Virus record (IMG/VR): IMGVR_UViG_2690316210_000006
Length of the DNA: 6,412 bases
Source: a virus
Taxonomy: Duplodnaviria; Heunggongvirae; Uroviricota; Caudoviricetes
Strand: one strand, 5' to 3'
Part shown: positions 32 to 6,412 of the stretch, piece after piece
How the letters are laid out: each line of letters begins with the position of its first letter
Position numbering within the stretch: the stretch's first letter is position 1
Position numbers and translations under genes: made by a program
Notes under the pieces: generated by a model
Told to the model about the DNA's origin: nothing
Databases searched by the model: none
The model's input: only the letters and a program-made list of their open reading frames with translations

Positions 32-358
32 TCACTGGCGCTGACACTTCATCACCTCCGGACGTAAATCACCATCCTTTGGTGCATTCAGAAACGCGTT
101 CAGTGTCCCCGGTGCATCAGTCGGTGCCACATCAATATCCCCGACACGGGTTGGCTGCCAGCCGTTACAGTGAAGCGCAACCTCGTAATACCCCGGCTCA
201 GCCTCAATCACATAAGCACCGTTATTGTCCGTCACGCAAGTGGCAACAACGTGTGCCACAACGGTCGGACTGGTTCTTCTGGCCCGCAGTTCAATCGCAC
301 AATTTACGACAGGTTTACCCGCCCCATCTTTCAGTACACCTGAAATCTTTACTGCCAT
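32..358 (-). CDS. Side-tail-fibre (Stf) N-terminal-domain-like protein, 108 aa, ending at a TGA 31 nt from the window edge; possibly a truncated stf remnant
   Basis: Minus-strand ORF; from the internal Met the product begins MAVKISGVLKDGAGKPV..., matching the recalled N-terminus of lambda Stf, with PGTLN.FL and RPEV motifs also conserved. ATG at 356-358 is preceded by GGGGTGAAT (SD-like, ~5 nt spacing). The longer ORF-track start at 400 would overlap a terminator-like hairpin. Position after lom matches lambda order J-lom-stf. Confidence 0.55.
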   Translation of the reverse strand: MAVKISGVLKDGAGKPVVNCAIELRARRTSPTVVAHVVATCVTDNNGAYVIEAEPGYYEVALHCNGWQPTRVGDIDVAPTDAPGTLNAFLNAPKDGDLRPEVMKCQRQ

Positions 359-369
359 ATTCACCCCAC

Positions 370-394
370 AAAAAGCCCGCCTGAACCAGCGGGC
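370..394 (-). terminator. Putative intrinsic terminator downstream of lom (hairpin plus U-tract)
   Basis: On the minus strand: GCCCGC-TGGTTCAG-GCGGGC (6-bp perfect stem, plus-strand 375-394) followed by TTTTT (plus-strand A-run 370-374). Lies between the lom stop (422) and the stf-like start (358). Confidence 0.4.
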
Positions 395-421
395 AGTCAT
401 AACACTGTGTTACCTGGCTAA

Positions 422-1021
422 TCAGAACTTATAACCGACACCCACGATGAAACCGTCAGTGCGCCAGTCACCACTGCCGGAACCTTCATAAGCAAGGTCA
501 ATGGCCACGGATTCGGTCGGGTTAAACTGCACGCCAGCCCCCCACGCCAGAGACGTGTTGCTGTGGCGACCGCCATCACTCCCGGTCAGCACATCGTGCG
601 TTTTCCCCTTGTTGTCAGTTACGCGGAGATAATCCCCGGAGAAGGTCGACACACGGCTGTAAGCCACGCCCGCCATCGCATACGCGCTGAACCATTCATT
701 CACGCGCACAGACGGCCCCGCCATCACGCTGAACCAGCGGTTACGCACGGAATCCTCATGCCAGCGGGTATCGCTGTAATGCGTTTTTTGCTCATCTTCA
801 GCGTTGGCATAACTGAATGACGTAATCAGCCCCAGCGTGTCCGTAAACTCATAACGGTATTTCACGTTAATGCCCTTCAGGTCATCGCTGCCTGGCATAT
901 CAGTATGGGTCTGAAGATACCCGGCGCTCAGCGTGGACTGATGTTCAGACGCCCATGCAGGCGCACCGGATACGGCCAGGCAAATGGCTGCGGACAAAAT
1001 GGCTGCACAAACTTTACGCAT
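422..1021 (-). CDS. lom: Lom outer-membrane beta-barrel protein (Ail/Lom/PagC family), 199 aa, intact
   Basis: Minus-strand ORF; protein MRKVCAAILSAAICLAVSGAPAWASEHQ... is near-identical to recalled lambda Lom. Sec signal peptide with an AWA cleavage motif; C-terminal ...GVGYKF with terminal Phe typical of OMP beta-barrels. SD GAGAGG about 5 nt upstream of the ATG. Sits directly downstream of the J stop as in lambda. Confidence 0.95.
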   Translation of the reverse strand: MRKVCAAILSAAICLAVSGAPAWASEHQSTLSAGYLQTHTDMPGSDDLKGINVKYRYEFTDTLGLITSFSYANAEDEQKTHYSDTRWHEDSVRNRWFSVMAGPSVRVNEWFSAYAMAGVAYSRVSTFSGDYLRVTDNKGKTHDVLTGSDGGRHSNTSLAWGAGVQFNPTESVAIDLAYEGSGSGDWRTDGFIVGVGYKF

Positions 1022-1088: not shown

Positions 1089-2522
1089 TCAGCTAATCGT
1101 GATGCCTGCAGTGGCTTTCTTCATCACCACAACCAGCAAATCGCTGATACTTGCTGTGGGATACCAGCCATTTACCAGCCATGCCGATACAGAAAACTCC
1201 AGCGTCATGTGACCGTGACCGGCAGGCATATCAATAACACCCGTATATATCAGCGTATTATCCAGGGTCGTTCGGTTATAAATTTCAGCACCGTTTTTCT
1301 TCACTATCAGGCGGCATGACGAATAAATATTGTTATTCTTCCGCTCATGTTTAGCACCGCGAAACGCCACCGCGGGAATAACAATTTGCCGATCAAACGG
1401 CTGATCGTCATAAACCCTGACGGTAATGGTCCCTGATGGCCACCTCTCCGGTGCCCGGGAGTCCCGTGGGAAAGGTTTGCCCACTGTTTTAACGAGATCG
1501 CCTTCAATCTGGTTCGCGGACAATTTTCCCAGAACCCGACAGTTCTTATTAATCGTGACGTTGTTGAGCGTCCCGGAGTTCGCGTTCACGTTACCGCTGA
1601 TATCGGCATTTTTCGCCGTCAGCCGCCCGTCCGGTGTCAGGGAAAATGCCGGAGGATTACCGCCGCTGGTAATGGTCGGAGCCGTCAGGCATTTCAGGAA
1701 CACGTCGTTCATGAATATCTGATCGCCCTGACCAACAAACATCGGCTTTGTGTTGCCATTCGCAGGATTAATCATCGCAATCCTGTCTGCCGCCAGCAGC
1801 ACCTGACTCTGCATTCCTGCTGGCGTATTCTCAATACCGGCACCGATACCCGCAATATAAAGGCGTCCGTCCTTCATCTGTTGCAGCTTCACAGCCCACA
1901 TGCTGTTCAGGTTATTATTTGTATCAACCTGAACTTTCTGTATCTGCTGGATTGCAGCACTCTGATTTTCCAGTTTTTTATTGACGGTTTGCGTGATTTC
2001 ATTGCTGACATTCGTAATGGACGTCCTGATTTCAGTCAGGTCCGGCGCAAGCTGACCGTTATCAATCTGCGTCCACAACTCCTTGCCGAGATGCGTTTTA
2101 TTGATCAACCCTTTATAAAAATTCAGATAACCTTCTGCATCATCGCTCGCCCGACCGATGGCCTCCACAAATGCCGATTTGCCAACGGTGTTCACACTGC
2201 GAACGTAAAAATAATAATCATGGCCCGGCCTGATATTGATACTGGCGGCTATCCAGTACAGCGCCGTGCCAAGATAGCGTGCTGTGGTTTCAACCTGCCT
2301 GATATCCGCAATCCGCTTTTCCGAGAACCAGAACTCAAACTGTACCGTCGGATCATAAACCGCAAGATGCGGCGTGGCGGTTATCTGAAAATAGCCCGGC
2401 GTCAGCTCAATCCGCGACAGCGCTGCCGGTGCGGCAATCCGGAACGATACCGACGCCGGATCGCCCTGCTGCCCCCACGCATTTACTGCCCGGACTGTCA
2501 GCCTGTAGTTCCCCAGCGCCAG
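1089..2522 (-). CDS. J: Host-specificity / tail-tip protein J, C-terminal ~477 codons (allele 1), 5'-truncated at the ambiguous base 2523
   Basis: The minus-strand frame reads [32 protein letters not shown]...[12 protein letters not shown]...[25 protein letters not shown]... to ...[10 protein letters not shown] then TGA (1089-1091), collinear with the recalled lambda J C-terminal region. The ORF-track start at 2195 is an in-frame GTG (Val in J), not a real start. Confidence 0.85.
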
Positions 2523-2523
2523 N

Positions 2524-2919
2524 GGTCAGCACATCGTGCGTTTTCCCCTTGTTGTCAGTTACGCGGAGATAATCCCCGGAGAAAGTCGACACACGGCTGT
2601 AAGCCACACCCGCCATCGAATACGCGCTGAACCAGCGGTTACGCACGGAATCTTCATGCCAGCGGGTATCGCTGTAGTGCGTTTTTTGCTCATCCTCAGC
2701 ATTGGCATAACTGAAGGACGTAATCAGCCCCAGCGCGTCCGTAAACTCATAACGGTATTTCACGTTAATCCCGTTCAGATTATCGCTGCCGGGAGCGTTC
2801 GTACGGGCATGAAGATACCCCGCGCTCAGTGTGGACTGATGTTCAGACGCCCATGCAGGCGCACCGGATACGGACAGACAGATGGCTGCGGACAAAATGA
2901 CTGCACAAACTTTACGCAT
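2524..2919 (-). CDS. lom: Lom-family OMP, second allele, N-terminal fragment only (truncated at ambiguous base 2523), with a 42-bp in-frame deletion relative to copy 1
   Basis: ATG at 2917-2919 with the same SD context as copy 1; product MRKVCAVILSAAICLSVSGAPAWASEHQ...; aligns to copy 1 positions 584-1021 apart from a 14-codon deletion and scattered substitutions. The frame then runs across N2523 into out-of-frame J sequence. Confidence 0.75.
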
Positions 2920-2940
2920 AATTACCTCTCGCTTTTCTGC

Positions 2941-2968
2941 AATAAAAAAGGCGCCATTTCTGGCGCCC
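2941..2968 (-). terminator. Putative intrinsic terminator between J and lom (copy 2)
   Basis: Minus strand: GGCGCC-AGAAAT-GGCGCC (plus-strand 2950-2967) followed by TTTTTTATT. Same position as the copy-1 terminator, with a compensatory stem change. Confidence 0.6.
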
Positions 2969-2986
2969 GTATATGGGTTATAAAAT

Positions 2987-4249
2987 TCAGCTGATACTGA
3001 TGCCTGCGGTGGCTTTCTTCATCACCACAACCAGCAAATCGCTGATACTTGCTGTGGGATACCAGTTATTCACCAGCCATGCTGACACCGAAAACTCCAG
3101 CGTCATGTGGCCGCGACCAGCTGGCATATCAATAACACCACTGTAAATCAGCGTATTATCCAGCGCGGTACGGTTATAAATTTCAGCACCGTTTTTCCGT
3201 ACTATCAGGCGGCATGACGAATAAATATCGTTATTCTCCCGCTCATGTTTAGCGCCGCTGAATGCCACCGCCGGAATAACAATCTGCCGGTCAAACGGCT
3301 GATCGTCATAAACCCTGACGGTGATGGTCCCTGATGGCCACCGTTCCGGTGCACGGGAGTCCCGGGGGAAAGCTTTGCCCACTGTTTTAACGAGATCGCC
3401 TTCAATCTGGTTGGCGGACAATTTTCCCAGAACCCGACAGTTCTCGTTAATCGTGACGTTGTTGAGCGTCCCGGAGTTCGCATTCACGTTACCGCTGATA
3501 TCGGCATTTTTCGCCGTCAGCCGCCCGTCCGGTGTCAGGGAAAATGCCGGAGGATTACCGCCGCTGGTAATGGTCGGAGCCGTCAGGCATTTCAGGAACA
3601 CGTCGTTCATGAATATCTGATCGCCCTGACCAACAAACATCGGCTTTGTGTTGCCATTCGCAGGATTAATCATCGCAATCCGGTCAGCAGCCAGAAGCAC
3701 CTGACTCTGCATACCTGCTGGCGTATTCTCAATACCGGCTCCGATACCCGCAATATAAAGGCGTCCGTCCTTCATCTGCTGCAGTTTCACGGCCCACATG
3801 CTGTTCAGGTTATTATTTGTATCAACCTGAACTTTCTGTATCTGCTGGATTGCCGCACTCTGGTCTTCCAGTTTTTTATTGACGGTCTGCGTGATTTCAT
3901 TGCTGACATTCGTAATGGACGTCCTGATTTCAGCCAGGTCCGGCGCAAGCTGACCGTTATCAATCTGCGTCCACAACTCCTGGGCCAGATGTGTTTTCCC
4001 GATTTCTCCTTTGAAAAAATCCAGGTAACCTTCCGCATCATCGCTCGCCCGACCGACAGCCTCCACGAATGCCGATTTGCCAACGGTGTTCACACTGCGG
4101 ATATAAAAGTAATAATCATGGCCCGGTTTGATATTGATACTGGCGGCTATCCAGTACAGCGCCGTACCAAGATAGCGGGCTGTGGTTTCAACCTGCCTGA
4201 TATCGGTAATCCGCTTTTCCGAGAACCAGAACTCAAACTGTACCGTCGG
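2987..4249 (-). CDS. J: Host-specificity protein J, C-terminal 420 codons (allele 2), from PTVQFEFW... to stop; joined upstream to another J segment at ambiguous base 4250
   Basis: Continuous minus-strand frame [28 protein letters not shown]...[32 protein letters not shown]...[10 protein letters not shown] with TGA at 2987-2989. About 95% amino-acid identity to allele 1, with many synonymous nucleotide differences. Confidence 0.85.
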
Positions 4250-4250
4250 N

Positions 4251-4969
4251 GGTGTCAGGGAAAATGCCGGAGGATTACCGCCGCTGGTAATGGTCGGAGC
4301 CGTCAGGCATTTCAGGAACACGTCGTTCATGAATATCTGATCGCCCTGACCAACAAACATCGGCTTTGTGTTGCCATTCGCAGGATTAATCATCGCAATC
4401 CTGTCTGCCGCCAGCAGCACCTGACTCTGCATTCCTGCTGGCGTATTCTCAATACCGGCACCGATACCCGCAATATAAAGGCGTCCGTCCTTCATCTGTT
4501 GCAGCTTCACAGCCCACATGCTGTTCAGGTTATTATTTGTATCAACCTGAACTTTCTGTATCTGCTGGATTGCAGCACTCTGATTTTCCAGTTTTTTATT
4601 GACGGTTTGCGTGATTTCATTGCTGACATTCGTAATGGACGTCCTGATTTCAGTCAGGTCCGGCGCAAGCTGACCGTTATCAATCTGCGTCCACAACTCC
4701 TTGCCGAGATGCGTTTTATTGATCAACCCTTTATAAAAATTCAGATAACCTTCTGCATCATCGCTCGCCCGACCGATGGCCTCCACAAATGCCGATTTGC
4801 CAACGGTGTTCACACTGCGAACGTAAAAGTAATAATCATGGCCCGGTTTGATATTGATACTGGCGGCTATCCAGTACAGCGCCGTGCCAAGATAGCGTGC
4901 TGTGGTTTCAACCTGCCTGATATCCGCAATCCGCTTTTCCGAGAACCAGAACTCAAACTGTACCGTCGG
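4251..4969 (-). CDS. J: Host-specificity protein J internal segment (third copy, 719 bp, PTVQFEFW... to ...[10 protein letters not shown]), allele-1-like, bounded by N4250 and the N-run
   Basis: Same reading frame as the J copy downstream; the sequence matches 1633-2351 almost exactly and 3531-4249 at ~95%. Forms the N-terminal part of the 608-aa ORF-track entry 2987..4813. Confidence 0.8.
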
Positions 4970-5152
4970 NNNNNNNNNNNNNNNNNNNNNNNNNNNNNNN
5001 NNNNNNNNNNNNNNNNNNNNNNNNNNNNNNNNNNNNNNNNNNNNNNNNNNNNNNNNNNNNNNNNNNNNNNNNNNNNNNNNNNNNNNNNNNNNNNNNNNNN
5101 NNNNNNNNNNNNNNNNNNNNNNNNNNNNNNNNNNNNNNNNNNNNNNNNNNNN
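4970..5152. other. Run of 183 ambiguous bases (assembly gap or masked sequence) inside the J reading frame
   Basis: Directly visible as n characters. Its length is close to the ~185 nt of J coding sequence expected between the flanks (STARTTET upstream, PTVQFEFW downstream). Confidence 1.
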
Positions 5153-6412
5153 GTGGTTTCCGTCGTCCGGGCCGTGCTGACCAGTCGCTCACTGCCGTCG
5201 TCCGCTGTTACGGTCAGACGGAGCAGGAAGCTCACGCCCTTCACCACCTTCGGCGTGTCCCAGCGCGCCAGCACCTGATATTCCCCGCTGTCTGCAGTGA
5301 CTTCGGCGGTCAGGTGCTGCACTGCTGGCGGCGTGACACCATTCACCGTGCCGCTCTGGTCACCGTCAAAGTGCGCCCCGTTATCCACGATGGCTTCTTT
5401 CTCCGGTACATGCTGCACGGCGGTGATGGCATACGTGCCGTCATCGTTCTCACGGATACTCACGCAGCGGAACAGGCGCTGGCGCAGCGTCGGCAGCTTC
5501 AGCCCCCACACGCTGTATTCTGCAACGCCGTCAGGAACACGGCTCACTTTCACCTTCACGCCGTCGGTGACGGACTGGACCTCCACGCTGACCGGATTAC
5601 CCTGACCGTCAACCAGGCTTATCAGCGTGGTACCGGAGGATGGCAGCGTGATTTCACGGTCGAGCGTCAGCGTCCGGGTCTGGCTGTTCACCGCCAGCAC
5701 GCGCCCGCCGGTGCTGATACCCGCATAGTCATCATCGCAGATTTCAATGACATCCCCCGGTACATGGCGAAGCCCTTCCGCACCCACGCTGAAGTCCACG
5801 GTCTGCGTTTCCAGCAGTTCCGTTTTAATCAGCCACAGCCCGGCGCGGTGCGCCTGCCCCCGGCTGGTACAGCCAAAGGCATCCATCTTCGTGACGTTAC
5901 GACCGTAACGGNACAAGCTCTGTCGCCGTCTCCCAGCCGTTATCCGGGTCAATCCAGTTCACCTCAACGGCATTATGACGGTCCTTCAGGGCACTGAAGC
6001 TGTAGCGGAACGGCGCGCCATCATCCGGCATCACCACATTACTGCGGTTATAGGCCCACACCTTATCCGACTGTCGGTCCTGCACGAACGTCAGCGTCTG
6101 CCCGTTCCATACCGGCATACAGCGCATCGCCGAGCAGAAATCACTGAGAACATCCCACGCCTTGCGCTGTGTGGTCAGGTAGGCATTACAGGTGATGCGC
6201 GGCTCCGTGCCACCAAAGCCATCCGGCACCGACTGGTCGCAATTCTGGCCGATGACATACAGCGCCCATTTGTCCACATCCGCCGCACCGAGACGCTTCC
6301 CCATGCCGTAGCGCGGATGGGTCAGCATATCCCACAGACACCAGGCCATGTTGTTGCTGTATGCCGGTTTTAGCGTTCCGTCCCAGATACCGCTGTATTG
6401 CCGCGTCTGCGG
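5153..6412 (-). CDS. J: Host-specificity protein J, central region (5'-partial at window edge), with a frame break at ambiguous base 5912
   Basis: Minus-strand translation gives ...MAWCLWDMLTHPRYGMGKRLGAADVDKWALYVIGQNCDQSVPDGFGGTEPRITCNAYL...NAVEVNWIDPDNGWETATEL, then after N5912 in another frame RYGRNVTKMDAFGCTSRGQAHRAGLWLIKTELLETQTVDFSVGAEGLRHVPGDVIEICDDDYAG...LVSTARTTET, collinear with recalled lambda J. Confidence 0.9.

Follow-up and report, generated by a model that had tools for sequence, protein, structure and literature searches.

Divergent copies of a sequence can be assembled separately, and mate links can then place them next to each other (Kelley and Salzberg 2010, PMC2864568). 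In that study, a duplicate alignment reaching the contig ends within 10 bp was used as a criterion. In the false segmental duplications reported there and by Ko et al. (2022, PMC9516828), the whole of the duplicate piece aligns with the terminal part of the adjacent one, and the copies are the two haplotypes of diploid genomes. Concerning short-read assemblies of E. coli and Shigella, lambdoid prophages are a documented cause of fragmentation (PMC7175801), with many unlinked phage contigs as the usual outcome. Here we examined a stretch of viral DNA (Caudoviricetes; IMG/VR record IMGVR_UViG_2690316210_000006), the 6,412 nt of which are referred to below as the window. It carries genes of a lambda-type tail tip, and the host-specificity protein J appears to harbour an in-frame tandem duplication of 240 codons. 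We estimate the probability that this "tandem duplication" is a false duplication from assembly and scaffolding at about 93%.

The window consists of five pieces split by N at 2523, 4250, 4970-5152 and 5912, and its J, lom and stf genes all lie on the minus strand. The pieces were mapped by blastn, with the J gene (3480 nt, 1159 aa) of an E. coli ATCC 11775 prophage (locus L001) as the reference. Read on the minus strand, piece p5 (5913-6412; L001 7231-7730) covers J nt 751-1250 (codons 251-417) with a frame open from 6412, and p4 (5153-5911; L001 6451-7209) covers J nt 1272-2030 with a frame open from 5910; both resemble the allele designated B below. After a run of 183 N (4970-5152), a sized scaffold gap, comes p3 (4251-4969), a free-standing piece of 719 nt with N on either side, which corresponds to J nt 2218-2936 (residues 740-979) and represents an allele A'. 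Piece p2 (2524-4249) covers J nt 2218-3480 and then the first 132 codons of lom. Its terminal 719 nt (3531-4249, J nt 2218-2936) are a second copy of the segment, in allele B, and the rest of its J sequence (2987-3530) encodes the remainder of the tail-tip fibre domain, followed by the receptor-binding domain at the C-terminus, and finishes with the stop codon at 2987-2989. Piece p1 (1-2522) comprises J nt 2047-3480 (allele A, 1089-2522), a full lom gene and the first 122 codons of stf, and within its J the segment is present once and uninterrupted. The same 3' part of J is thus covered by three pieces (J nt 2218-2936, 2218-3480 and 2047-3480) in three different alleles.

We then compared the copies of the segment. 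Copy 2 (3531-4249, in p2) and copy 3 (4251-4969, equal to p3), both 719 nt in length, aligned without gaps with 40 mismatches (94.4% identity). Copy 1, the third copy of the 719-nt segment (1633-2351, in p1), also aligned without gaps and differed from copy 3 at 3 positions (99.6% identity) and from copy 2 at 43 (94.0%). As aligned, a 719-nt match at 94% cannot be due to chance. Translation of the minus strand over 2987-4969 gave 661 open codons, whose product consists of the unit beginning with PTVQFEFW, an X, the same 239 residues with 11 substitutions, the J C-terminus and the stop. Since 719 nt and one N add up to 720, the two units are in frame as written. The join between them, N4250, is flanked by ...CTGTACCGTCGG and then GGTGTCAGGG... 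in the window. The coordinates of the repeat, its 720-nt period and the in-frame reading, all put forward in a sequence-only reading of the window, were reproduced by alignment and translation. The same reading had counted about nine amino-acid differences between the two units, and the number found here is 11. Its proposal that J as written carries an in-frame tandem duplication is valid locally, at N4250, but not for the gene as a whole, as the frame of J is broken at N5912 and at the N run. Nor is its figure of "exactly 720 nt" informative, as N4250 is a join placeholder rather than a base.

This interpretation of N4250 derives from the other single N's. N5912, the join between p5 and p4 (flanks ...ACCGTAACGG and ACAAGCTC...), stands in the place of 21 nt, which read GCAATGGCCTGCGTGTCCTCC in the J of L001, and causes a frame shift in the window as written. 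N2523 leads from the interior of lom in p2 to the interior of J in p1, moving back by about 1.9 kb in reference coordinates. Both join non-contiguous sequence, indicating that a single N in this window is a placeholder and not one base, and the sum 719 + 1 = 720 is therefore physically meaningless. We had also considered N4250 as a low-quality base in contiguous sequence, a possibility rejected on the same grounds, the other two single N's joining non-adjacent sequence. This bears directly on the alternative that the duplication is real, in which recombination between J alleles of prophages would have duplicated residues 740-979 in frame, the J encoded by the source genome would comprise about 1399 aa, including two units of 240 residues that are not identical, its central fibre would be longer, and N4250 would be an uncalled base. 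We regard this as very improbable. The open, in-frame join of p3, N and p2 is what it predicts, and as a functional duplication would also need such a join, this is a point against an artefact. However, both boundaries of the unit coincide with N joins in a window whose other single N's are provably not bases, and the J gene as written is out of frame elsewhere. The coordinate of the first codon base of J, modulo 3, is 1 in 5913-6412, 0 in 5153-5911 and 1 in 4251-4969. The frame shifts at N5912 as well as over the N run. Of the three joins inside J, only that at N4250 preserves the frame, as expected by chance, and its doing so is a coincidence with odds of one in three. An uninterrupted J open reading frame of about 1130-1160 codons is absent from the window as written, the frame changing and the 3' part being present three times, and we attribute this to the scaffolding and not to the gene itself. 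An open reading frame of 170 aa (2407-2919, minus strand) starts at the lom ATG (2919), crosses N2523 and ends in the J sequence of p1; it is a chimeric lom-J product of the same scaffolding.

The distances between the pieces were then examined on the reference. The repeated unit begins 187 nt from p4, a distance that agrees with the 183 N and indicates that the gap size fits one unit after p4. The placement of p3 behind p4 is also what a real duplication would give. The end of p1 is only 16 nt from the end of p4, and p1 is therefore also a legitimate continuation of p4. At the other side, p3 aligned over its full length (100%, 1-719) to the last 719 nt of p2, and both pieces stop at one homologous base, which argues against a real duplication. 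The base beyond this common end is polymorphic, A in p1 and locus L002 and G in loci L001 and L004, as would fit a branch point in an assembly graph. A real duplication is further disfavoured by what follows, a third overlapping copy that comes next through an impossible join from lom to J. On the other hand, the start of p3 falls midway in a stretch of 199 nt (1585-1783) over which p1 and p2 are identical, so this boundary is not explained by a branch point between alleles A and B, and it counts against the artefact. We also attempted to derive the k-mer size of the assembler from the piece ends. Piece p2 extends 42 nt beyond the last position at which it differs from p3, a distance compatible with k=43. 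The difference nearest to the opposite end of p3 is 151 nt away, and 578 identical bases are common to p1 and p3. The latter two figures do not fit a simple de Bruijn graph, and the estimate was abandoned.

The protein encoded by the underlying genes is a lambda-type J. In the J pieces of the window, the Pfam domains Ig_J (its end), Ig_J_second, Phage_Tail_Tip and Ig_GpJ_C were detected above cut-offs, and a 1159-aa relative (L004, 4454-7933) displays the full gpJ set of FNIII-A_GpJ, Phage-tail_3, Ig_J, Ig_J_second, Phage_Tail_Tip and Ig_GpJ_C. The J fragment of p1 matched the solved structure of lambda gpJ (8IYK_J, Tip attachment protein J, 1132 aa) with an E value of 1.1e-184, and 9WCA_J with 9.7e-188. 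The neighbourhood is that of a tail tip, with lom and the N-terminus of stf downstream in the window and L, K and I upstream in loci L001, L002 and L004-L011. The gpJ Pfam domains and the gene order J-lom-stf are common to the window and lambda-like phages. We found no biological difference from lambda; the gene as written differs in being broken by N joins and in presenting its 3' part three times. The J alleles underlying the window are of the 1159-aa form, 27-28 residues longer than lambda gpJ, and the extra residues lie inside the repeated segment. J alleles in general occur in two lengths, 1131 aa (L003, 3457-6852) and 1159 aa (L001, 5001-8480), and the 84-nt difference between them is located inside the 719-nt segment (636 nt in the short form), between Ig_J_second and Phage_Tail_Tip. 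That natural alleles differ by 28 residues within the repeated segment is compatible with a real change in length. The positions of the unit boundaries, however, are not favourable to one. In the 1159-aa J, Ig_J_second extends over residues 716-818 and Phage_Tail_Tip over 872-1000, and the unit (740-979) starts 24 residues into the former and ends 21 residues before the end of the latter. As the breakpoints cut two folded domains, a real duplication would insert a tail-tip fibre domain without its last 21 residues and an Ig-like domain without its first 24, and a protein with the doubled unit would probably fold poorly.

We searched finished sequences for the junction. The 1983-nt stretch as written collapsed onto a place of 1263 nt in complete E. 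coli genomes, both units matching one target. Annotated J proteins with one unit are 1159 aa in length in complete genomes and in phage vB_EcoS-640R1, and 1131 aa in the shorter allele. With a 60-nt probe across the p2/p3 junction, no place with at least 80% coverage was found in 5,426 complete E. coli genomes (12,995 matching places), nor in the 146 matching phage records, and this absence speaks against a real duplication. The best matches of the probe ended at the junction after a short microhomology. Microhomology of this kind (CCGTC..GG), between the end of the unit and the sequence before its start, could on the other hand have served a recombination event. A probe of 120 nt had given 451 places with at least 80% coverage in complete E. 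coli genomes, but these were not junctions. In H31 (L003) its halves lie 636 nt apart in the normal order inside a single-copy 1131-aa J allele, and the two matches had been joined. The 60-nt probe was chosen for the reason that its halves cannot be joined into a false match of this kind. The exact junction pattern including N was not found in viral contigs, and an exact look-up of the 608-aa open reading frame at 2987-4813 gave no match.

The two-unit product was also searched against 1.84 billion representative proteins. No protein gave a doubled score, the best being 569 bits in comparison with about 500 bits per unit, which is a further point against a real duplication, although the search is a weak one, in that a duplicated J could sit behind a normal representative of its 50% cluster. 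Among the matches were assembly-derived J fragments with internal repeats. P0001 contains a perfect 50-aa repeat (...GMQSQV twice), P0017 contains two perfect 29-aa repeats, and in P0026 the end of the tail-tip region runs back into the Ig-like region, with about 100 residues repeated with one change. These may be artefacts of the same kind or real variation in the length of the central fibre. The presence of J fragments with internal tandem duplications in public protein sets favours a real duplication to some extent, and with these examples a change in length at this locus is not unthinkable.

In finished genomes each allele occurs once, inside a normal 1159-aa J. A single J gene of normal length with one copy of the segment, named by the sequence-only reading as the observation that would speak against its duplication, was what we found in every related finished assembly examined. 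Its expected length of about 1130 aa for a full J agrees with lambda gpJ (1132 aa) and with the shorter allele (1131 aa), but not with this lineage (1159 aa). Its view that the two units are different alleles, brought together by a join of prophage alleles and not by duplication in situ, is supported by the N-bounded copy 3, the non-contiguous joins at the other single N's, the three overlapping alleles and the absence of the junction.

We next consider where the alleles come from. Piece p2 is 99.7% identical to the J-lom region of ATCC 11775, UTI89, APEC O1 and many other prophages. Pieces p4 and p5 are closer to the ATCC 11775/UTI89 type represented by L001 (98.3 and 97.6%, respectively) than to the S. 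sonnei loci (95.1 and 94.4-94.6%). Over its full length, p1 is 98.6% identical to sequences in complete genomes whose Lom protein is the same as that of p1. The best complete-genome match of p3, at 98.9%, was to the loci nearest p1, which are from S. sonnei and a few E. coli. At three clustered sites p1 and p3 differ, p1 displaying the state of S. sonnei and p3 that of p2 and L002, which indicates that p3 is a third natural allele. A 45-mer specific to p3 (4811-4855) had no exact match in the viral, genome-representative and metagenome contig collections. From the sequences, the most economical arrangement would be that p5, p4, the missing 187 nt and p2 belong to one prophage, with p1 and p3 representing other copies.

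The same artefact could also have arisen from alleles of different strains in a mixed culture or a metagenome, and not from several prophages of one genome. The distribution of relatives is in line with this possibility, as the B allele (p2) matches UTI89, APEC O1 and ATCC 11775 at 99.7% while the A alleles (p1 and p3) are nearest to S. sonnei and a few E. coli, and no accession is common to the top-40 lists for p2 and p1. Nevertheless, we consider a mixture of strains unlikely. Several J copies in one complete E. coli genome are the rule (a median of 2-3 matching places, with up to 14-17), and in FDAARGOS_944 the best matches of p3 and of p1 are found at different chromosomal places. Prophages also move between lineages, so that the best host match says little about the source strain. 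It is normal that a genome contains several similar J copies, and a short-read assembler regularly meets copies that are 90-99% identical.

One of the genomes with a Lom identical to that of p1, CP019689, is that of Shigella sonnei 75/02 (PMC5447701). In this record (L009 and L010; 4619248-4645264) we observed two tail-tip modules in the same orientation, each extending from the minor-tail genes through J to lom. They are 9,417 nt apart with IS elements between them, and there were 0 mismatches over the 5,115 nt compared. Judging from the sequence, a prophage remnant is genuinely repeated in tandem in this relative of the p1 allele.

The genes downstream of J were also inspected. The lom gene of p1 (allele A, 422-1021, minus strand) is of full length, 199 aa, and belongs to the Pfam family Ail_Lom (E=4e-129); in complete genomes the identical protein adjoins a 1159-aa J. 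That of p2 (allele B, 2524-2919, minus strand) consists of the first 132 codons and is cut at the end of the piece. In comparison with the lom genes of L001 and p1, it displays an in-frame deletion of 42 nt (14 codons). The deletion (2624-2644; compare p1 684-745 and L001 4607-4638) lies between two 10-nt direct repeats, CGCTGAACCA, and L001 is otherwise 99.7-100% identical to p2 around it. Either slipped-strand loss in the genome or a further assembly error could account for it. The stf gene of p1 (32-400, minus strand) is an N-terminal fragment of 122 aa with the Pfam families phage_tail_N and CarboxypepD_reg. Locus L007 (8622-8990) contains a 122-aa gene with the same two families, and an IS transposase gene is present about 0.45 kb downstream. 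This short stf in both the window and L007, with an IS nearby, suggests that p1 may derive from a decayed prophage remnant and not from an active phage.

The piece structure, the overlapping mapping of the pieces, their allele assignment and the absence of the junction elsewhere were observed, and it is from this layout that we infer the artefact. How the assembler behaved, and that the alleles reside in one genome, is presumed in the course of events that we propose as follows. The sample would contain the 3' part of a lambda-type J, with the neighbouring lom, in three or more diverged copies, most likely from different lambdoid prophages or remnants in one E. coli or Shigella genome. Reads from copies that are 94-99.6% identical could not be merged into one path, and would have been assembled into the separate pieces p3 (A'), p2 (B) and p1 (A). 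Through the shared flanks, linking information would have set all three behind the single upstream piece p4. The scaffolder would then have written the pieces serially, with 183 N in place of approximately 187 nt of absent sequence, and with one N at each join for which a gap of zero or negative size had been estimated. The true genes would be ordinary single-unit J genes of about 1159 aa.

Such a layout resembles the cases described for haplotypes of diploid genomes and for prophages, with some differences. As in the false segmental duplications (PMC2864568, PMC9516828), one piece is matched over its entire length by the end of the adjacent piece; p3 spans the end of p2 with the same final base, well inside the 10-bp limit of Kelley and Salzberg, and p2 lies inside the range of p1. 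The copies likewise differ at the level of alleles (0.4-6%), are adjacent with only gap characters between them, and were probably placed by linking information via common flanks. What is typical of a false duplication was found here: the duplicate is bounded by N, the other joins are non-contiguous or overlapping, and the arrangement is absent from finished assemblies. A genuine duplication should display a sequenced junction from unit to unit; in this window an N placeholder occupies that position, and the databases searched contained no spanning sequence. While the published cases involve the two haplotypes of diploid genomes, three copies are stacked in the window, the most likely explanation being paralogous prophage genes in a haploid bacterium or alleles from strains that occurred together. 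As in the prophage-related fragmentation of E. coli and Shigella assemblies (PMC7175801), the breaks in the window are located within a phage gene of which a genome contains several highly identical copies. Unlike the many unlinked phage contigs that usually result, the pieces were here chained by the scaffolder, leading to an apparent in-frame repeat.

The value of the finding is a practical one. Automatic annotation of the window would yield a host-specificity protein that is too long or chimeric, together with an open reading frame in which lom and J are fused, and products of such scaffolds can enter protein databases as apparent domain duplications. The artefact can be recognized by its signature, in that the repeat units start and stop exactly at N and the pieces map onto one reference interval. 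Were the duplication real after all, it would represent a lengthening of the tail-tip fibre via recombination between prophages, with moderate relevance to the evolution of host range. As a false duplication, it leaves the biology of this family as known: the underlying genes are ordinary lambda-type J, lom and stf alleles, and no new kind of tail protein is involved.
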